NCBI GenBank assembly: GCA_963740935.1
Contig: CAVUFX010000006.1
Location: 982,554 to 1,046,553, forward strand
DNA length: 64,000 nt
Reading direction: 5' to 3'
DNA from: an uncultured Actinomycetota bacterium
GTDB taxonomy: Bacteria > Actinomycetota > Actinomycetes > Propionibacteriales > Nocardioidaceae
Of the stretch, positions 26,485-64,000 are shown piece after piece (within the stretch, counting starts at the first letter, position 1; the number at the start of each line of letters is the position of its first letter). The position numbers and the translations under genes are program-made. Below the pieces are notes generated by a model. The model worked only from the letters and a program-made list of their open reading frames with translations, did not search any database and had not been told where the DNA came from.

Positions 26485-27510
26485 GTGACTGCCCTCCACG
26501 ACCTCCAGCCGGCCCCGACGGGTGGCCTGGCCGACGGGTTCGGCCGGGTCGCCACCGACCTGCGGGTCTCCCTGACCGACCGCTGCAACCTGCGCTGCAA
26601 CTACTGCATGCCGGCCGAGGGCCTCGACTGGCTGCCGACCGACCAGACGCTGAGCGACGACGAGGTGGTGCGGCTGGTCCGCATCGGCGTGGAGGACCTC
26701 GGCATCCGCGAGGTGCGGTTCACCGGCGGCGAGCCGCTGCTGCGCCGGGGGCTGAGCGACATCGTCCGGCGTACGACGCTGCTGCGCCCGCGCCCCGAGG
26801 TCTCGCTCACCACCAACGCCCTGGGCCTCGCGCGCACCGCGGCCACCCTGGCCGAGGCCGGGCTCGACCGGGTCAACGTCAGCCTCGACACCATCCGCGC
26901 CGACGTGTTCGCGCAGATCACCCGCCGCGACCGGCTGCACGACGTCGTCGCCGGGCTCGAGGCCGCCGACGCGGCCGGCATCGGCCCGATCAAGATCAAC
27001 GCCGTGCTGCTGCGCGGCGTCAACGACCACCTGGCGCCCGAGCTGCTGGCCTGGTGCCTGGAGCGGGGCTACCAGCTGCGCATCATCGAGCAGATGCCGC
27101 TGGACGCCCAGCACAGCTGGTCGCGCGAGGGCATGGTGACCGCGGAGGAGATCTTCGCCTCGCTGGCCACCGCGTTCACGCTCACCCCGGACCCCGACCA
27201 CCGCGGCAGCGCCCCGGCGGAGACGTTCATGGTGGACGGCGGTCCGGCTCGCGTGGGCGTCATCGCCTCGGTCACCCGCCCGTTCTGCGGCGACTGCGAC
27301 CGGGTCCGGCTCACCGCCGACGGCCAGGTCCGCAACTGCCTGTTCGCCCGCGAGGAGTCCGACCTGCGGGCCGCGCTGCGCGGCGGGGCGAGCGACGCCG
27401 AGATCGCCGACCGGTGGCGGCTGGCGATGGTCACCAAGCGGCCGGGCCACGGCATCGACGACACCACGTTCCTCCAGCCGACCCGGCCGATGTCCGCGAT
27501 CGGCGGCTGA
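26485..27510 (+). CDS. moaA: GTP 3',8-cyclase (molybdenum cofactor biosynthesis)
   Basis: Radical SAM CNLRCNYC, FTGGEP, FCGDCDR..C, C-terminal MSAIGG. Confidence 0.96.
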   Translation: MTALHDLQPAPTGGLADGFGRVATDLRVSLTDRCNLRCNYCMPAEGLDWLPTDQTLSDDEVVRLVRIGVEDLGIREVRFTGGEPLLRRGLSDIVRRTTLLRPRPEVSLTTNALGLARTAATLAEAGLDRVNVSLDTIRADVFAQITRRDRLHDVVAGLEAADAAGIGPIKINAVLLRGVNDHLAPELLAWCLERGYQLRIIEQMPLDAQHSWSREGMVTAEEIFASLATAFTLTPDPDHRGSAPAETFMVDGGPARVGVIASVTRPFCGDCDRVRLTADGQVRNCLFAREESDLRAALRGGASDAEIADRWRLAMVTKRPGHGIDDTTFLQPTRPMSAIGG

Positions 27511-28169: not shown

Positions 28170-28382
28170 ATGTCCGACCGCACCTACCGCGTGACCGAGA
28201 TCGTCGGCACCTCCACCGAGGGCATCGACCAGGCGATCCGCAACGGCGTCGAGCGCGCCGCCCGCACGCTGCGCCACGTCGACTGGTTCGAGATGACCCA
28301 GGTCCGCGGCCACGTCAAGGACGGCCAGGTCGAGCACTTCCAGGTGGGCCTGAAGGTGGGCTTCCGGCTCGAGGACGACTGA
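28170..28382 (+). CDS. Dodecin (flavin-binding)
   Basis: TYRVTEIVGTS..AIRNGV.RA..TLRHVDWFE..RG...FQVGLKVGF. Confidence 0.93.
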   Translation: MSDRTYRVTEIVGTSTEGIDQAIRNGVERAARTLRHVDWFEMTQVRGHVKDGQVEHFQVGLKVGFRLEDD

Positions 28383-28386
28383 GGCG

Positions 28387-30099
28387 TTGGGCGCCGGCCT
28401 CGCCCTGGTGGAGCTGCGGGTCCTCGAGGGGCCCAACCTGTACTTCCCCCGCGCGGCGGTCAAGCTGACCGTCGACGTCCACCCGCTCGCCGCCCTGGAC
28501 GAGGCCGCGCTGCGCGACCTGGCCGCCCGCCTCGGGCTGCGCTCGGTGCGAGCCGGGCAGCCGTTGAGCGGCTTCCGGCAGCGGGCGCTGGTCCGGGTGG
28601 TGACGGCGCTGGTGCGGCGGGTCGCCCGCGAGTCGGGCACCACGCGGCTCGGCGTACGCGTCCGGGCGACCGCCGACGCCGACCGGCTCGTGGTGGCGTA
28701 CCCCTGGCGCGACCGGTCGCGGGCACGGGCGCTGGGGGAGCAGGTCGCCGCCGTGCTGGACGGGCTCGGCGGCACCGACCCGCTCGAGGACCTCGTCGCC
28801 GCCGCTGCCGCGGTGGTGCGCGGCACGCCGCGCGGTCCCGGCCCCACCACCGTGCGCCCGCGGGTGCCGCTCGTGGCCGTCACCGGCACCAACGGCAAGA
28901 CCACCACCTCGCGCATGATCGCCCACATCGCCCGCCAGGCGGGCCACCACGTCGGCTGGTCCAGCACCGACGGGGTGTACGTCGACGGCGAGCTCGTCGA
29001 GCCCGGCGACTACTCCGGACCCTCGGGGGCCGGCCAGGTGCTGTCGCGGCCGGAGGTGGACTTCGCGGTCACCGAGACCGCCCGGGGCGGGATCCTGCTC
29101 AAGGGCATCGGCGTGAGCAGCAACGACGTCTCGGTCGTGACCAACGTGACCGCCGACCACCTCGGGCTCCAGGGCATCGACACCGTCGACCAGCTCGCCG
29201 AGGTCAAGGCCGTGGTCCCCTCCATCACCCGCCGCGACGGCTGGGCGGTCCTCAACGCCGACGACCCGCGGACCCTGGCGATGCGCGGCGTGACCAAGGC
29301 GCAGCCGTGGCTGTTCTCCCGCGACCCCGACTCCCCGGCGCTGCGCGAGGTGCTGGGCGCCGGCGGTCGGGCCACCACCGTCATCGACGGCTGGGTGACC
29401 GTGCTGGAGGGCCGCACCTCCGACCTGCTGGTCGAGCTGGTGGACGTGCCGATGACGCTCGGCGGGCTGTCCCGCTTCAACGTCGAGAACGCCCTGGCCG
29501 CGGCGTCCGCCGGCCTGGCCGCCGGCATCGCGCGCGAGCACGTGGTCGCCGGGCTGCGGTCGTTCCGGCCCGACGCCGAGCACAACCCCGGCCGGATGAA
29601 CTTCTTCACCGTCCCCACCGATCGCGGCGAGCTGTGCGTGGTGATGGACCTCGCCCACAACGAGGCCGGGCTCGAGGCGATGGTCGAGATCATGCGCGGG
29701 GTCCGCGCACCCGGTGGCCGGCTGCTGCTCGGCCTCGGCGCGGTGGGCGACCGGACCGACGAGCTGCTCGAGGCGCTGGGCGAGATCGCCGCGCGCGACA
29801 GCGACGTGGTCGCGATCGGCCACAAGGAGAGGTACCTCCGCGGTCGCACCGTCGCCGAGATGGACGCCCTGCTGCGCACCGGCGCGGAGCGCGTCGGGGT
29901 GACCGACGTGGCGTCGTACCCCACCGAGCTGGCCTCGCTCCAGGCCCTCGTCGCGCAGGCCGGGCCCGCCGACGTGGTGGGCCTGATGTGCCACGCGGAG
30001 CGCCAGGAGGTCTACGACTGGCTGGCCTCGGTGGGCGGTGCGCCCGACTCGGCCGAGCGGCTCGCCGAGCGCGTACGACGGGCGGCGGCACCGGCGTGA
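28387..30099 (+). CDS. Cyanophycin-synthetase paralogue: degenerate N domain + Mur-ligase (M) domain, no ATP-grasp domain
   Basis: Starts ELRVLEGPNLY (compare CphA ETRVYRGANVW); then VAVTGTNGKTTTSRMI, ETARGGILLKG, NVTADHLGLQGIDT, LNADDP, D-x-AHN, all matching the M domain of the neighbouring CphA. Confidence 0.8.
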   Translation: MGAGLALVELRVLEGPNLYFPRAAVKLTVDVHPLAALDEAALRDLAARLGLRSVRAGQPLSGFRQRALVRVVTALVRRVARESGTTRLGVRVRATADADRLVVAYPWRDRSRARALGEQVAAVLDGLGGTDPLEDLVAAAAAVVRGTPRGPGPTTVRPRVPLVAVTGTNGKTTTSRMIAHIARQAGHHVGWSSTDGVYVDGELVEPGDYSGPSGAGQVLSRPEVDFAVTETARGGILLKGIGVSSNDVSVVTNVTADHLGLQGIDTVDQLAEVKAVVPSITRRDGWAVLNADDPRTLAMRGVTKAQPWLFSRDPDSPALREVLGAGGRATTVIDGWVTVLEGRTSDLLVELVDVPMTLGGLSRFNVENALAAASAGLAAGIAREHVVAGLRSFRPDAEHNPGRMNFFTVPTDRGELCVVMDLAHNEAGLEAMVEIMRGVRAPGGRLLLGLGAVGDRTDELLEALGEIAARDSDVVAIGHKERYLRGRTVAEMDALLRTGAERVGVTDVASYPTELASLQALVAQAGPADVVGLMCHAERQEVYDWLASVGGAPDSAERLAERVRRAAAPA

Positions 30100-30124: not shown

Positions 30125-31505
30125 ATGACCGACTCACGACGCCTCGCCGTGCTCATCGACGCGGACAACGTCTCCTCCAAGGTCTCCACCGACCTGTTCG
30201 CCGAGCTCGCGGGCTACGGCCTGCTGACCGTCAAGCGCGCCTACGGCGACTGGACGACCGACCAGCTCAACGGCTGGAAGAAGCGGCTCCACGAGCACGC
30301 CATCTCCCCGATGCAGCAGTTCGCCTACACGACCGGCAAGAACTCCAGCGACTCCGCGCTCATCATCGACGCGATGGACCTGCTGTACGCCGGCAACCTC
30401 GACGGCTTCGTCATCGTCTCCAGCGACAGCGACTTCACCCGCCTGGCGACCCGCCTGCGGGAGTCCGCCATGACGGTCTACGGGGTGGGGGCGAGCAAGA
30501 CGCCGCGCGCCTTCCGTGACGCCTGCGACAAGTTCACCTTCCTCGAGGTGCTCGGTGCCGCCGGCTCCGACGACGAGGAGGAGGAGCCGGCGCCGCAGCG
30601 CAGCCGCCGGTCCTCCTCCCGCGGCGGTGGCGGGGGCGGAGGCGGCGAGACCCCCGAGCCGCGCGAGGCCAGCGACACCGCCGCCCGCGAGCAGGCGGCG
30701 GTGCTGCAGAGCGTGCTGTCGCGCAGCCTCAACAAGGCCGACTCCGACGACGAGGACTGGACCACCCTCGGCTCGCTCGGCACCCTGCTGACCCGCACCG
30801 ATCCCTCCTTCGACGCCCGCACCCACGGCTTCGGCAAGCTCAGCGACCTGATCCGCGAGCAGCCCTTCCTCGAGACCCGCACCATCACCACCGCCGCCGG
30901 CACCGAGCAGCTGATGGTGCGGCTCAAGGGCCGCCGGCGGGCCAACCGCGGCCCCGGTCGCCGCTCACGCGGCGAGGCCAGCAGCGAGCCGACCCAGGAG
31001 CCGACCCAGGACCAGGCCGTCCGAGGAGGCCGCTTCCGACCCGACCCCCGAGCCTGCTCCCGACACCGCGCCCGGGACGGCCGTGGCGCCGGGCGTCGTC
31101 GACGCCCCCGAGGTGCCCGAGGCGGCCCCGGAGCAGGCCGAGGTCCCCGAGGTCGCGTCGCTCACGCCGGTGGCCGAGGTCGCGGCGCAGTCCTCCGACG
31201 ACCCGGGCGACCCGGCTGCCGAGGTCGCCGAGGACGCGCCGGTGAGGAAGACCGCCCGCAAGGCGGCCAAGAAGGCCCCCGCCAAGAAGGCCGCCGCCAA
31301 GAAGGCGCCGGCGAAGAAGGCCGCTGCCAAGAAGCCCGCGGCCAAGAAGTCGGCCGCCGCGCCGGCGGAGGCACCCGCACCGGAGGCGGCGCCCGAGCCG
31401 CCGGCCGCCGGCGGCCACACCGTCACGGTGGGCCGCACCTCGCGGCGCTCTGCCACCCGGGCGGCGGGCCCGTCGAAGACGGCCGAGGGGACCCCGACCG
31501 GCTAG
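30125..31505 (+). CDS. NYN (LabA/DUF88, PIN-like) nuclease + LOTUS/OST-HTH domain + acidic linker + AKK-repeat tail; apparent +1 frameshift at ~31018
   Basis: AVLIDADN, GKNSSDSALIIDAMD, SSDSDF; SFDARTHGFGKLSDLI; tail KAAKKAPAKK... in the shifted frame ending TAG 31503-31505. Confidence 0.85.
31245..31350 (+). repeat. Histone-H1-like AKK tandem repeat, six copies at 5-aa period
   Basis: RKTARKAAKKAPAKKAAAKKAPAKKAAAKKPAAKKS; 15-nt DNA periodicity around GCCAAGAAG. Confidence 0.9.
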
Positions 31506-34351
31506 GCCGTGGTGTCGGCGGGCGGCGTCCAGTCGGGGTCGGCGACCGGGGCGTCGCTCGACCCGGCTCCGGCGCCGGCCTGGGCGTGGGGCGACCAGTT
31601 CTCCAGCTCGCTCATCACCAGCGGGTGCTGGTCGACGCAGACCACGACGAGGTCGCCGTAGTTGGCGCGGCTCATCGCGTGGTGGACGGCCTCGATCTCG
31701 TCGAGGATCACCTCGAGCTGCTTGCAGCGGCTGCCGGCCTCCATCGCGCGGCGTACGCCGTCGGCCACGAGCGCCGAGGTCTCGCCGCGCTCGCGTCGGC
31801 GCAGCGCCTTGTCCTCGCGGACCACGACGACGTCGAAGTGCTGGGCCGCGACCTCGCCGAGCTCGCGCATGTCCTCGTCGCGGCGGTCGCCGGCGGTGGC
31901 GATGACGCCGATCCGCGACGGCTTGCCGAGCTCGTGACCGGAGTCGAGGCTCTCGCCGAGCCGGTCGACGAAGTCGCCGAGCGCCCGCATGCCGGGGGCG
32001 TTGTGGCAGTAGTCGACGATCACGTTGACCCCGTTGACCTCGATCTCGTTCAGGCGGCCGGGGGAGAGGTAGTAGCTGGTCGAGAACGTCCGCAGCCCCT
32101 GGCGGATGTCGTGCAGCGGCGCGCCCGCGGCGAAGGCGGCGGCCGCGGCGGCCAGGGTGTTCTGGACGTTCATCCGGGCGCGGCCGGAGAAGGTGGCGGG
32201 CAGCAGGTGGGTGAAGGCCAGCTGCATCTGGCGGGCGCCGTGGCGCACCACGATCATCTCGCCGCGCTCGGTGGGCTGGAGCACCAGCGCCTTGCCGCCC
32301 CGGCGGCAGTGCGCGTCGATCAGGTCGATCTCCTCCGAGCCCGGCTCGGCCATCGAGAACCACACCACCTGGCCCGAGCAGCGGCGTCGCATCGCCCGCA
32401 CCAGCGGGTCGTCGGCGTTGAGCACGGCGTGCCCGTCGCGGGGGACGGCCTCGACGAGCACGGCCTTGACGTCGGCGAGCTGCTCGACGGTGTCGATGCC
32501 GCGCAGGCCGAGGTGGTCGGGCTGCACGTTGAGCACCACCGCGACGTCGTTGCGCTCGTAGCCCAGGCCCTCGCGCAGGATGCCGCCGCGGGCGACCTCG
32601 AAGACGGCGAAGTCGACGCGAGGGTTCTGCAGCACCATCCGGGCGCTGCGCGGGCCCGAGGCGTCGGAGCGGATCAGCAGCCGCTCGTCGATGACGACGC
32701 CGTCGGTGGAGGTCATCCCGACCTTGCGGCCCATGCCCTTGAAGATGTGGCTGATCATCCGGCTCGTCGTGGTCTTGCCGTTGGTGCCGGTGACGGCCAC
32801 GATCGGGATCCGGCTCGGCGTGCCCGGCGGGACCAGCATGTCGACGACCGGCTTGGCGATGAACTGCGGCTCGCCGATGGTCGGGTGGGTGTGCATCCGG
32901 AAGCCCGGCGCCGCGTTGACCTCGCAGATCGCGCCGCCGGTCTCGCGCACCGGCTGCGTGATGTCGGGGCAGATGAAGTCGATGCCGGCGATGTCGAGCC
33001 CGATCATCCGGGCCGCCTCCTCGGCGATCTCGACGTTCTCCGGGTGGGCCTCGAAGGTGCGGTCGATGGAGATGCCGCCGGTCGACATGTTGCCGGTGAG
33101 CGCCAGCTTGACCATCTCGCCCTCGGCCGGGACGGAGTCCAGGGTGTGGCCCTGGCCGGCGAGGACCTCCTCGGCGGCGGCGTCGACCTTGATCCGGGTC
33201 AGCACCTTCTCGTGGCCCACGCCGCGGCGCGGGTCGGCGTTGGTCAGGTCGACGAGCGTGCGGACCGTGCTGGTGCCGTCACCGGTGACCGACGCGGGCA
33301 CCCGCTCGGCGATCGCGGCCATCCGGCCGTCGATGATCAGGCAGCGGTAGTCCTTGCCGGTGACGAACGACTCCACGATGACGGTGCCGCGGCGGGACTG
33401 GGCCCGGGCGACGTCGAAGGCCTCACGGACGTCGTCGTCGGACTGCAGGTCCAGGCACACCCCGCGACCGTGGTTGCCGTCGAGCGGCTTGACGACCACG
33501 GGGAAGCCGATCCGGCGGGCCATGGCGACCGCCTGCTCCGCCGTACGCACCGACTCCTGCCGGGGCACGGGCAGTCCCGCGGCGCCCAGCAGCCGGGTGG
33601 TGAGGTCCTTGTCGGAGGCGATGTCGACCGCGATCGAGCTGGTCTCCGAGGTCATCGTGGCGCGGATCCGCTTGGCGTGGACGCCCTGGCCGAGCTGCAC
33701 CAGCGAGTGCGAGTTGAGCCGGATCCAGGGGATGTCGCGCGAGACCGCCTCGTCGAGGATCGCCTGGGTCGAGGGACCGAACGCGGTGCGCTGGGCGCGG
33801 ATGATGAAGGCGTCGAGCTCGGCCTCGAAGTCCAGCGAGGGGTCGGCCCGGACGAGGTGGTTCACCAGGCGTACGGCGAGCCGTGCGGCCGCCAGCCCGA
33901 CCTGCTCGTCGACGTAGCCGAACACCACGTTGTAGTGACCCGGCGTGCCCTTGACCTGGCGGGTCTTGCCGCGCCGGATGTCGTGGCCGACGACCTGCTG
34001 GAGCGCCAGCGCGCAGTGCTCGGCGACGTGGCCGAGCCAGGTGCCCTCGTGCAGGCGCTCCACGAAGCCGCCGCGGCGACCCCGCGAGCAGGAGTGCTCG
34101 CGCAGGCCGGGGAGCGCCTCGAGCAGGTGCTCGGTGAAGCCGGGCAGGGTGTTGGTGGGGTACTCCTCGAGCACGCCGAGGTCCACCACGAGGTGGATCG
34201 CCTTGTCGTAGGACCAGACGTTGGCGCCGCGGTAGACCCGGGTCTCGACGATGGCGAGGTCGGGGCTGGGCCGCCCGCCGCCGGTGACCTGGACGCCGCT
34301 GCGGGGCTCGGGGGAGTGGTCGTCGCGCCGGTCCTGGGGGCTCTGCGTCAC
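31502..34351 (-). CDS. cphA: Cyanophycin synthetase CphA1
   Basis: N domain with C-x19-HxxEH, ATP-grasp (VVKPLDGNHGRGV, EVNAAPG), Mur-ligase domain (TGTNGKTT, ARGGILREG, DYCHN). Confidence 0.95.
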   Translation of the reverse strand: MTQSPQDRRDDHSPEPRSGVQVTGGGRPSPDLAIVETRVYRGANVWSYDKAIHLVVDLGVLEEYPTNTLPGFTEHLLEALPGLREHSCSRGRRGGFVERLHEGTWLGHVAEHCALALQQVVGHDIRRGKTRQVKGTPGHYNVVFGYVDEQVGLAAARLAVRLVNHLVRADPSLDFEAELDAFIIRAQRTAFGPSTQAILDEAVSRDIPWIRLNSHSLVQLGQGVHAKRIRATMTSETSSIAVDIASDKDLTTRLLGAAGLPVPRQESVRTAEQAVAMARRIGFPVVVKPLDGNHGRGVCLDLQSDDDVREAFDVARAQSRRGTVIVESFVTGKDYRCLIIDGRMAAIAERVPASVTGDGTSTVRTLVDLTNADPRRGVGHEKVLTRIKVDAAAEEVLAGQGHTLDSVPAEGEMVKLALTGNMSTGGISIDRTFEAHPENVEIAEEAARMIGLDIAGIDFICPDITQPVRETGGAICEVNAAPGFRMHTHPTIGEPQFIAKPVVDMLVPPGTPSRIPIVAVTGTNGKTTTSRMISHIFKGMGRKVGMTSTDGVVIDERLLIRSDASGPRSARMVLQNPRVDFAVFEVARGGILREGLGYERNDVAVVLNVQPDHLGLRGIDTVEQLADVKAVLVEAVPRDGHAVLNADDPLVRAMRRRCSGQVVWFSMAEPGSEEIDLIDAHCRRGGKALVLQPTERGEMIVVRHGARQMQLAFTHLLPATFSGRARMNVQNTLAAAAAAFAAGAPLHDIRQGLRTFSTSYYLSPGRLNEIEVNGVNVIVDYCHNAPGMRALGDFVDRLGESLDSGHELGKPSRIGVIATAGDRRDEDMRELGEVAAQHFDVVVVREDKALRRRERGETSALVADGVRRAMEAGSRCKQLEVILDEIEAVHHAMSRANYGDLVVVCVDQHPLVMSELENWSPHAQAGAGAGSSDAPVADPDWTPPADTTA

Positions 34352-35331
34352 GGTCGGGCTCCTCTGCTGCGGCGGGCCACCCGGCGGCGGAGGACCGCGG
34401 GGGAGACGTCGTCGGCGGCGATGTCGCGCGCCAGCTTGGACAGGTCGCGGTTGGCCACGGCCAGCTCGTCGGCCTCGGCGGGGTCGCTCACGGCGGGGGC
34501 CGGGAGCAGCACGCGGTCGGCCAGGTCGAACCGCGAGCCGGCGGGGAGGGCGTGCAGCACCACGCCCGAGGCCAGGATCGGGCGGTGCTCCTTGGCGGCG
34601 TGGGCGTCGGTGACCATGGTGCGGCCGTCGAGCACGGTCACCACGCCGCGGCCGACCACCTCGAGCACCTGGCGGCCGTCCTCGCCGGTGGTCACGGCCG
34701 CCGCGGTGTCCTCGTCGACGCCGATGCCGAGCAGCTGCGGGCTCTGGGAGACGATCATCAGCAGCCGGCCGTAGCGGTTGCGCTGCGCGAAGTGCTGGTC
34801 GACGACGCAGTCCGCGAGCAGCCCGAGCCCGGCCGCGACCTGGGTCATCCGCTGCTTGGCGGTGGCACCGCCCGGCCCGAAGGCGACCATGTGGGAGGAC
34901 TGGATGCTGGCGCCCGCCGAGGTCCCGCCCACCGTGACGCCACGGTGGTGGGCCGCGTGCAGGGCGTCGCCGAACGGGGTGCCCGCGACGACGGTGCCGA
35001 GCTTGAGCTGGTTGCCGCCGGTCATGAAGACCCCGGTGGCACGGTCGAGGGCGCCCACCACGGCGGGGTCCGAGGCCTCGGTCCGGTCGGTCGGGCGGAC
35101 CCCGTAGACCTCGGCGGCACCCAGCTTGGCGAACACCGCGGCGTACACCTCCACGATCTCGTCGCCGAGCGACGAGGCGGTCGGGACCACCGCGATCCGG
35201 GCCTGCTCACCACCGGCGCGGCGCACGAAGTCGGCGAGGACGGCGCGCTTGCCGAGCTTGTCCTCGGCCCCGCCGATGACGACGAGGTCGCCGCGGGGTG
35301 ACCCCGGCGCGGGCGTGGCACCGAATGGCAT
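34348..35331 (-). CDS. cphB: Cyanophycinase (S51 serine peptidase)
   Basis: IGGAEDK, FMTGGNQ, GGTSAGAS, DQHFAQRNRYGRL, GVDEDT; the stop overlaps the cphA start. Confidence 0.93.
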   Translation of the reverse strand: MPFGATPAPGSPRGDLVVIGGAEDKLGKRAVLADFVRRAGGEQARIAVVPTASSLGDEIVEVYAAVFAKLGAAEVYGVRPTDRTEASDPAVVGALDRATGVFMTGGNQLKLGTVVAGTPFGDALHAAHHRGVTVGGTSAGASIQSSHMVAFGPGGATAKQRMTQVAAGLGLLADCVVDQHFAQRNRYGRLLMIVSQSPQLLGIGVDEDTAAAVTTGEDGRQVLEVVGRGVVTVLDGRTMVTDAHAAKEHRPILASGVVLHALPAGSRFDLADRVLLPAPAVSDPAEADELAVANRDLSKLARDIAADDVSPAVLRRRVARRSRGARP

Positions 35332-35364
35332 GACAGGCAGCCTAGGGGGTGGAAGATTGACGGG

Positions 35365-63159: not shown

Positions 63160-63522
63160 ATGGACGACGTGCACACCCCGACCGCGGGGGCCGGCATCGG
63201 CAGCACCGCCCTCGGGCGGCTGCAGCTGCGCGTCCCCGAGGACGGCGGGTTCGAGGACGTCGTCGTCGAGCGTCGCTGGCCCGACATGACCGCGGCCCGC
63301 GCCTGGTGCGAGCGCACCGTCGCCCGCTCGGCGGCCGGCACCACCGTGACGGAGGTCCAGGTCTTCGAGGAGTCCTGGAAGCACTCCAAGTCGTGGGAGA
63401 CCGCCCGCCACCGCCCGGTGGCCGAGGTGCTCCAGCTCGCGGTGGTCGGCGCCGACGGCCGGCTGCGCTGGACCGAGCCGCGCTCCATGACGCCGCGCGC
63501 GGGCGCCCGTCACCTGCTCTGA
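63160..63522 (+). CDS. Hypothetical protein
   Basis: 120-aa ORF with TAGCCT -10 6 nt upstream of ATG; no recognised family. Confidence 0.65.
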   Translation: MDDVHTPTAGAGIGSTALGRLQLRVPEDGGFEDVVVERRWPDMTAARAWCERTVARSAAGTTVTEVQVFEESWKHSKSWETARHRPVAEVLQLAVVGADGRLRWTEPRSMTPRAGARHLL

Positions 63523-63547
63523 TCCCGGCTGGGGCACCATGGGTCGC

Positions 63548-64000
63548 ATGACGACCCCCACCTCAGGAGCCAGCAGCGCGTCGACCTACGACCCCGCTGC
63601 CGAGGTCGTGGAGATCTGCCGCGACCTGATCCGGATGGACACCACCAACTACGGCGACGGCGAGGGTCCCGGCGAGCGCAAGGCCGCCGAGCACGTGGCC
63701 TCGCTGCTCGAGGACGTCGGCATCACCGCCGAGCTGTGGGAGGCCGAGCCCGGCCGCACCAACGTCCTCGCCCGCTGGGGCGGCGACGGCAGCGACGGGG
63801 GCGAGCCGATGCTGCTGCACGGCCACCTCGACGTGGTGCCGGCCGACGCCGACGACTGGACCGTGCACCCCTTCAGCGGAGAGATCCAGGACGGCCAGGT
63901 CTGGGGCCGCGGCGCGGTCGACATGAAGGACTTCGACGCCATGCTGCTCTCCACCGTCCGGGCGCGGGCGCGGGCCGGCCAGGTGCCGAGCCGCCCGCTC
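63548..64000 (+). CDS. M20/M25/M40 family metallo-hydrolase, 5' part (runs off the right edge)
   Basis: DLIRMDTTN, GRTNVLARW, LHGHLDVVPA, WGRGAVDMK. Confidence 0.9.
   Translation, partial: MTTPTSGASSASTYDPAAEVVEICRDLIRMDTTNYGDGEGPGERKAAEHVASLLEDVGITAELWEAEPGRTNVLARWGGDGSDGGEPMLLHGHLDVVPADADDWTVHPFSGEIQDGQVWGRGAVDMKDFDAMLLSTVRARARAGQVPSRPL

Follow-up and report, generated by a model that had tools for sequence, protein, structure and literature searches.

A CphA relative without an ATP-grasp domain, encoded near the cyanophycin genes of Nocardioidaceae: a candidate stand-alone side-chain ligase

Introduction

Cyanophycin is a nitrogen-storage polymer, and its biosynthesis is described as the work of cyanophycin synthetase 1 (CphA1) alone, with CphA2 as a recycling variant. 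The subject of this study is a relative of these enzymes that lacks the ATP-grasp (G) domain, here called G-less, and that consists of an N-like domain followed by a Mur-ligase-type M domain. Its gene occupies positions 28387-30099 (+ strand; 570 residues) of a 64,000-nucleotide stretch of contig CAVUFX010000006.1 (assembly GCA_963740935.1) from an uncultured soil member of the Nocardioidaceae; the whole of this stretch is referred to as the window, and coordinates given without a locus number are positions in it. The protein (P0001) belongs to a known enzyme family, as a variant that has not been characterised. Judged from its sequence it is probably, though by no means surely, a stand-alone amide ligase of the CphA M type, active and ATP-dependent, which is carried on a non-catalytic N domain and acts in trans on the cyanophycin made by the neighbouring CphA1.

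In CphA1, a cyanophycin analogue bound at the M site sits between the N domain and the M-core (PMC9427784), and the N domain touches the M domain through its hydrophobic GPN-Y-W loop (PMC9262961). Most CphA1s also carry in the N domain a Cx19HxxEH metallopeptidase motif that makes primers (PMC9262961); this motif is present in 83 % of CphA1s, so that it is typical of the group and not strictly defining. CphA2 is a reduced CphA whose N domain is non-catalytic and lacks HxxEH (PMC9262961; bioRxiv 10.1101/2023.04.15.537035).

Like CphA1 (TIGR02068; structures 7LG5, 7LGJ, 7LGQ, and 7WAE), the G-less protein combines an N domain, homologous to that of CphA1, with a full M domain that is of the same subtype and has the same catalytic residues; its predicted N-M arrangement is of the CphA1 kind, and its gene sits by cphA1 and cphB. 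Unlike CphA1, it has neither the G domain nor the Cx19HxxEH peptidase site, the pocket equivalent to the DNPR motif of MurE is remodelled, it belongs to a separate deep clade, and it scores below the TIGR02068 cut-off. With CphA2 it shares reduction and an N domain without HxxEH; in CphA2, however, it is the G domain that is kept and the M domain that is truncated and inactive, whereas the present protein lacks G and has a full-length M domain with M-lid and intact active-site residues. A preliminary description of this DNA had recognised the reverse of the CphA2 reduction here, and the N + M architecture agrees. The protein resembles MurE in its Mur middle and C-terminal domains, P-loop, Mg-binding Glu and His, counterpart of the carbamylated Lys, and Arg of DNPR; it differs from MurE in having no UDP-MurNAc-binding N-terminal domain, in scoring at most 100 bits on MurE models (cut-offs 257-1023), and in the long branch, with 100 % support, that lies between the two.

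Domain architecture

The M domain is divided into an M-core, the Mur ligase middle domain (28852-29571, + strand; residues ~156-395), and an M-lid, the Mur ligase C-terminal domain (29572-30096, + strand; residues ~396-570). Pfam recognises Mur_ligase_M (PF08245) at residues 165-375 with 70.3 bits (cut-off 24) and Mur_ligase_C (PF02875) at residues 402-533 with 36.4 bits (cut-off 28.4). The CphA1 model TIGR02068 matches residues 157-536 with 380 bits over model positions 476-849, which is the M part only, and this score lies below the full-length cut-off of 850 bits. The best sequence matches in the PDB are CphA1 structures (E 6e-76 to 7LG5), and the neighbouring CphA1 shares 43 % identity with it in 361 aligned residues of the M domain (E 7e-64). 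It had been proposed that the two M domains correspond motif by motif, and all of the motifs cited (VAVTGTNGKTTTSRMI, ARGGIL, DHLGLxGIDTVxQLAxVK, LNADDP, and D..HN) are present in both proteins. Scores on models of other ligases fall short of their cut-offs: 99.6 bits (cut-off 373) for the best MurE model and 42.7 bits (cut-off 162.65) for folC. The absence of an ATP-grasp domain, also proposed before, holds with Pfam, NCBIfam, and a custom hidden Markov model (HMM) of the G domain, none of which found one in the protein.

The N domain (28387-28851, + strand; residues 1-155) is of the CphA type and divergent; it is identified by hhalign, the structural model, and Foldseek. Pfam PF18921, the CphA N domain, has no match in the protein at E < 0.01, and a custom HMM of the CphA1 N domain gives 17.7 bits only. 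When 28 N-termini of the family were compared with 21 CphA1 N domains by hhalign, the two aligned over 157 columns with 98.4 % probability (E 6.3e-15). Residues 1-155 are thus homologous to the CphA N domain, though beyond the reach of the Pfam model. They retain the opening LRVLEGPNLYF hairpin and loop, the conserved R93, and the conserved aromatic residue W107. The Cx19HxxEH motif is not present in this domain: there is no Cys, and in the hhalign alignment RVVTA stands in the place of the HVAEH of CphA1. Both halves of the earlier claim, a region of ~155 residues that resembles the CphA N domain and the loss of its peptidase motif, are therefore upheld.

An AlphaFold model made from 27 sequences has a mean predicted local distance difference test score (pLDDT) of 92.8 and a predicted template modelling score (pTM) of 0.90. 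Its top Foldseek matches are CphA1 structures 7LGJ, 7LGQ, 7LG5, and 7WAE (E ~1e-39), with template modelling (TM) scores of 0.75-0.80 (query-normalised); MurE reaches ~0.54 in the same comparison. The CphA1 alignments cover N and M jointly and leave the G domain as a gap. Because the matches span N + M, the N-M arrangement of the G-less protein is predicted to be that of CphA1.

The gene starts with TTG 4 nt past the stop codon of a dodecin gene, with GAGGA ~12 nt 5' of the start; GTG at 28408 is an alternative start. Homologues start at the same place, 3-12 residues ahead of the motif LVELRVLEGPN, and the closest are from Marmoricola and Nocardioides; the G+C content of the window (74 %) is likewise actinobacterial. 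A pseudogene or a fragment of cphA1 is ruled out by conservation over the full length in 120+ close and ~22 distant cluster representatives, with invariant catalytic residues.

Active site and amino-acid pocket

Residues were compared in an alignment of 23 family members, 18 members of a sister G-less family (see below), and 26 CphA1 M domains. The family keeps all catalytic positions and nearly all positions that are at least 85 % conserved in the CphA1 M domains. The P-loop GTNGKT is at residues 167-172 (nt 28885-28902), with K171 as the P-loop Lys. Also conserved are, in the M-core, D208, E230, R233, N253, D257-H258, K274 (the counterpart of the carbamylated Lys of Mur ligases), N290, D292-D293, and N368; and in the M-lid, R403, D421, H424-N425, D455-R456, R485, R487, and E514. 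With its catalytic residues intact, the protein is plausibly an active ATP-dependent ligase.

Differences between the family and CphA1 are few and confined to the C-terminal lobe. GDRRDED of CphA1 becomes GDR(T/P/G)D, with loss of the second Arg of GDRR; K-E-D-x-D-LRGR becomes x-x-x-Y-LRGR, which is one residue longer, loses the acidic EDxD, and has a near-invariant Tyr (Y483); AHN(P/A) becomes AHNE, with a near-invariant Glu (E426); and GGILR often ends in Leu instead of Arg, with the next residue basic.

In MurE, the DNPR motif selects the incoming amino acid. This motif was mapped by alignment with eight MurE sequences taken from metagenome loci. Its Asp aligns to D847 of CphA1, a position with 92 % conservation in CphA1 that varies in the family, and its Arg aligns to R485, which the family retains. 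From the retained Arg, the variable counterpart of the Asp, and the role of DNPR in MurE we infer that the G-less protein still binds an α-amino acid via its carboxylate, with a side-chain pocket unlike that of CphA1.

Phylogeny of the G-less families

An exhaustive search of clusters formed at 50 % identity gave 1333 representatives at E < 1e-30, and among the best 150 of these are many proteins of 520-600 residues. Nearly all sampled short proteins begin, as CphA1 does, with an x-R-x-L-x-G-P-N hairpin, with the P-loop ~160 residues on; of the N-terminal motifs, the GPN-Y-W loop shows the strongest conservation across all G-less families.

In a maximum-likelihood tree of M domains, the family of P0001 forms a clade separate from the CphA1 M domains, with 99 % support in the Shimodaira-Hasegawa-like approximate likelihood ratio test (SH-aLRT). 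In the unrooted tree, a split with 99 % support divides CphA1 from this family and its sister G-less family together. When the tree is rooted on MurE, all CphA-type M domains, including that of P0001, form one group (100 %, branch length 3.2), and the G-less families fall outside the CphA1 clade (81 %), not within it; the sister family joins weakly, and the union of the two has 59 % support. The earlier expectation that the protein would not group with MurE, MurF, or FolC is confirmed by its place inside the CphA-type group, and the model scores, Foldseek, and MurE-rooted tree together rule out an enzyme of any of these types. The term CphA paralogue, which had been applied to it, needs qualification: the M domain is of the CphA type, but by its position in the tree the protein is not a recent paralogue of the neighbouring gene and belongs to an old, separate clade. 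A recent duplicate of the M domain of that gene is ruled out by the 43 % identity and the separate, 99 %-supported clade. Early loss of the G domain and its insertion into an N + M ancestor could each account for the trees; the data are compatible with both.

The family of P0001 is defined here as G-less CphA family A, by an N-like domain plus M domain in ~530-595 residues, membership of the 99 % clade, the motifs AHNE and YLRGR, and a cphA1 gene nearby, all of which are found for P0001. The sister family, with an 'RRLTGPN'-type N-terminus, resembles it in its N + M architecture (~560-590 residues) and in the location of its gene beside cphA1. It differs in its N domain, which is not alignable to that of P0001 by phmmer, in keeping the CphA1-type Arg of GGILR and mostly HNP, and in always lying co-directionally right after cphA1. 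Part of the sister family is covered by Pfam DUF4938 (PF16292), a profile that spans the N domain and the beginning of M; it matches P0176, of the sister clade, and five others among 55 sampled proteins, and has no match in P0001.

Other reduced forms of CphA were also seen. A third type of short CphA relative (~560-660 residues) is represented by P0202, P0236, P0247, P0201, P0263, P0186, P0197, and P0268, and by locus L129 (179-1942). Several of these have a canonical PF18921 N domain, 10-100 extra residues, and an M domain nested in the CphA1 clade; they may be independent, more recent losses of the G domain or mis-called genes. Tandem cphA pairs occur in eight metagenome loci (L101, L102, L107, L111, L113, L118, L119, and L127). 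The upstream copy (~730 residues) has a strong CphA1-type N domain, G, and the M-core only, which is a truncated M domain and a CphA2-like build, and the N domain of the downstream copy (~860 residues), which is full length, is weaker. This complementary reduction parallels the pairing of CphA1 with a G-less protein.

Linkage and co-divergence with cphA1

The window contains a full cyanophycin synthetase 1 gene, cphA1 (31502-34351, - strand; 949 residues; 1167 bits on TIGR02068), and a cyanophycinase gene, cphB (34348-35334, - strand; Peptidase_S51; ~328 residues from MPFGAT...); the stop codon of cphB and the start of cphA1 overlap by 4 nt. The window CphA1 (P0004) has an N domain with Cx19HxxEH, an ATP-grasp G domain, and an intact M domain. 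The complete cphB-cphA operon of the preliminary description is thus there and is near the G-less gene, but 'next to' overstates the proximity, since the two are convergent with an NYN/OST-HTH gene between them and stop codons 1.4 kb apart.

Dependence on cphA1 was judged from gene neighbourhoods. In the Nocardioidaceae, a downstream, convergent cphA1 (N + G part detected) is present in 65 of 80 loci, and in 61 of the 64 whose downstream sequence extends to 7.5 kb or more; the two genes end a median of 919 bp apart and abut in 11 loci, and one locus (L040) has a partial cphA1 at its edge. Of the 12 informative loci of distant family members (40-56 % identity), 10 have an adjacent cphA1, in at least three gene arrangements. 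Six distant loci have the convergent layout (L083, L089, L093, L095, L096, and L139). In L090 the genes lie on one strand, as cphB ... cphA1, the G-less gene 4 nt later, a peptidase gene of the M20 family, and an amidohydrolase gene (allantoinase/hydantoinase-like); in L092 the order on one strand is G-less gene, 4HBT, cphB, cphA1. Two of the ten (L086 and L087) have partial cphA1-type open reading frames cut by contig ends. The sister G-less family is directly downstream of cphA1 and co-directional in 8 of 8 loci.

The CphA1 partners of the G-less proteins form a single clade (95 %). Pairwise distances among the G-less proteins and among their partners are correlated (r = 0.95 for 17 pairs; Mantel test, 0 of 2000 permutations as high), and the G-less protein diverges ~1.7 times faster than its partner. 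HxxEH is retained in all six partner CphA1s examined, those of five loci and P0004. Because these keep HxxEH and the M domain of the window CphA1 is intact, the G-less enzyme is, on sequence grounds, an addition to CphA1 and not a replacement.

A CPG2-like M20 peptidase, with the NCBIfam glutamate carboxypeptidase PRK06133 as its closest model (269-303 bits; cut-off 349), adjoins family members in five loci: L081 (4221-5366), L087 (2119-3237), L090 (11661-12863), L093 (4098-5336), and L139 (7969-9372). It was not found near the G-less gene in the window or in the Nocardioidaceae loci. CPG2-type enzymes cleave off an N-acylated C-terminal amino acid. As this is the bond that a ligase of the present kind would make, the recurring peptidase might, as a speculation, be the matching hydrolase for the ligase product. 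A weak M20-like match (20 bits) at the end of the window (63491-64000, + strand), 33 kb from the locus, is probably unrelated.

Proposed function and alternatives

Given the published substrate position between N domain and M-core and the packing of the GPN-Y-W loop, an N + M protein would keep exactly the side-chain-adding module of CphA1. In the mechanism proposed for the G-less protein, the polymer would sit, by comparison with CphA1, in the groove between N domain and M-core, and ATP would phosphorylate a free carboxyl at the P-loop/Mg site, most likely the β-carboxyl of an Asp without side chain, at the chain end or left bare. The α-amino group of an amino acid bound by the M-lid would then attack the acyl-phosphate. 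The residue added could be Arg or, since the amino-acid-selecting segment is remodelled relative to CphA1, another residue. Having no ATP-grasp domain the protein could not extend the Asp backbone, and having no HxxEH it could not cut primers. The acceptor, the donor, and action in trans are the parts that we infer; the domains of the protein, its intact catalytic site, its place in a deep, separate clade, and its genetic linkage to, and joint divergence with, cphA1 are observed.

Several observations weigh against this proposal. Upstream, moaA is about as conserved as cphA1 (68 of 80 loci), so the adjacency in Nocardioidaceae may be inherited synteny and is weak by itself; for linkage, the adjacency in distant members is decisive. 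Throughout the Nocardioidaceae the G-less gene is convergent with cphA1 and in unrelated operons (with dodecin here, with fabG-inhA elsewhere). Co-occurrence with cphA1, as the preliminary description had foreseen, stands across distant lineages but is not universal: L063 and L078 have no cphA1 within 8 kb, and none was found for L081 and L091 in the available flanks (8-10 kb). A role of D847 in Arg binding by CphA1 is supposed by analogy with MurE. With the M domain of the partner CphA1 intact, a second side-chain ligase has no evident purpose. Finally, the net charge of the family N domains ranges from +9 to -13, with no consistent sign of a particular polymer, and charge was dropped as a clue to the polymer for lack of a consistent signal.

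The same chemistry, with the active site intact, could serve to make small molecules, with Arg or another amino acid added to the β-carboxyl of free Asp or of short Asp peptides to give β-Asp-X dipeptides or primers from which cyanophycin synthesis would be seeded or fed. CphA1 without primers starts very slowly (PMC9262961), and M20 dipeptidase-like genes lie beside several members; a separate primer maker nevertheless seems unneeded when every partner CphA1 examined keeps HxxEH, and a full N domain, the holder of long chains in CphA1, suits a polymer substrate better, which makes this explanation improbable. Tight co-inheritance with one CphA1 clade would also be expected of a structural or regulatory partner, that is, a subunit of a hetero-oligomer by which chain length, localisation, or activity is tuned and whose own catalysis is unimportant. 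CphA1 oligomerises by M-core and G-core contacts (PMC9427784), and the tandem cphA pairs of other bacteria show complementary reductions; yet ~20 catalytic and substrate-binding residues are invariant across members that are 40-56 % divergent, which would be unexpected if catalysis were dispensable, and such a role is considered very unlikely.

There is similarly little expectation that the protein is a Mur-ligase-type enzyme unrelated to cyanophycin, acting on another carboxylate (a cell-wall peptide, a cofactor, or another poly-amino acid) and lying near cphBA by synteny. The location in a Nocardioidaceae core region (moaA, DUF3099, dodecin, fabG-inhA), convergent with cphA1, fits this explanation, as do L081 and L091, which have no nearby cphA1, and the molybdenum-cofactor genes that recur by distant members in L081, L082, and L086 (MoaA; XdhC and MobA-like; MoeA with DUF6457). 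Against it, cphA1 is adjacent in at least three arrangements across lineages 40-56 % identical, including co-directional spacing of 4 nt, the N domain is known from cyanophycin synthetases only, and the protein is far from MurE by sequence and tree. A functional link to the molybdenum-cofactor genes was set aside, since partners and arrangements differ; these genes are probably core-genome synteny, and L086 also has a cphA1-type M domain 2 kb downstream.

A bolder version of the side-chain ligase proposal, which we regard as rather doubtful, is that G-less ligases make a chemically different cyanophycin, either through attachment of a non-Arg residue to free β-carboxyls of Asp or by extension from the free α-carboxyl of side-chain Arg (branch on branch), with the M20 peptidase removing the added residue. 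The N + M form could even be ancestral, with the ATP-grasp domain inserted later, because both G-less families fall outside the CphA1 clade of M domains.

Neighbouring genes

The dodecin gene directly 5' of the G-less gene (28170-28382, + strand; 100 bits in Pfam) is probably co-transcribed with it in this genome only. The sequencing runs that turned up, among them a single possible RNA run that contains low-depth contigs of relatives, give no information on expression of the gene. In most Nocardioides, fabG-inhA and not dodecin lies directly 5' (e.g., L024, 6436-7955); the upstream operon partner thus varies across Nocardioides, and the convergent cphA1 is constant. Further upstream in the window are moaA (26485-27510) and a DUF3099 gene.

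Between the G-less gene and cphA1 is a gene with NYN and OST-HTH domains (30125-31505, + strand), which begins 26 nt past the stop codon of the G-less gene. Its frame has no stop codon there and continues antisense to cphA1 as far as 34774. In L004 the orthologue ends in a Lys/Ala-rich tail; here this tail is found in another frame, at 31083-31505, which ends 3 nt within the 3' end of cphA1. There is an apparent frameshift in this gene near 31080-31140, which may reflect an assembly error, decay to a pseudogene, or another cause.

Naming and significance

The G-less CphA relative was not found described in the literature on cyanophycin, Mur ligases, DUF4938, or CphA variants; the published name 'CphA3' belongs to an Aeromonas β-lactamase and not to a CphA relative. 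Databases name the family 'cyanophycin synthetase' (JGI), which is wrong, or 'Mur ligase family protein' (NCBI), and misleading names of this kind can lead to overestimates of how many organisms produce cyanophycin.

Biotechnology has an interest in both cyanophycin and its dipeptides; for making modified polymers, a side-chain ligase that works alone and has a different amino-acid pocket would be a useful tool. For the bacteria themselves, a conserved, apparently active third type of CphA would mean an unrecognised step of the pathway in many soil bacteria, which could be the repair of bare Asp, a change in side-chain composition, or control of the polymer.

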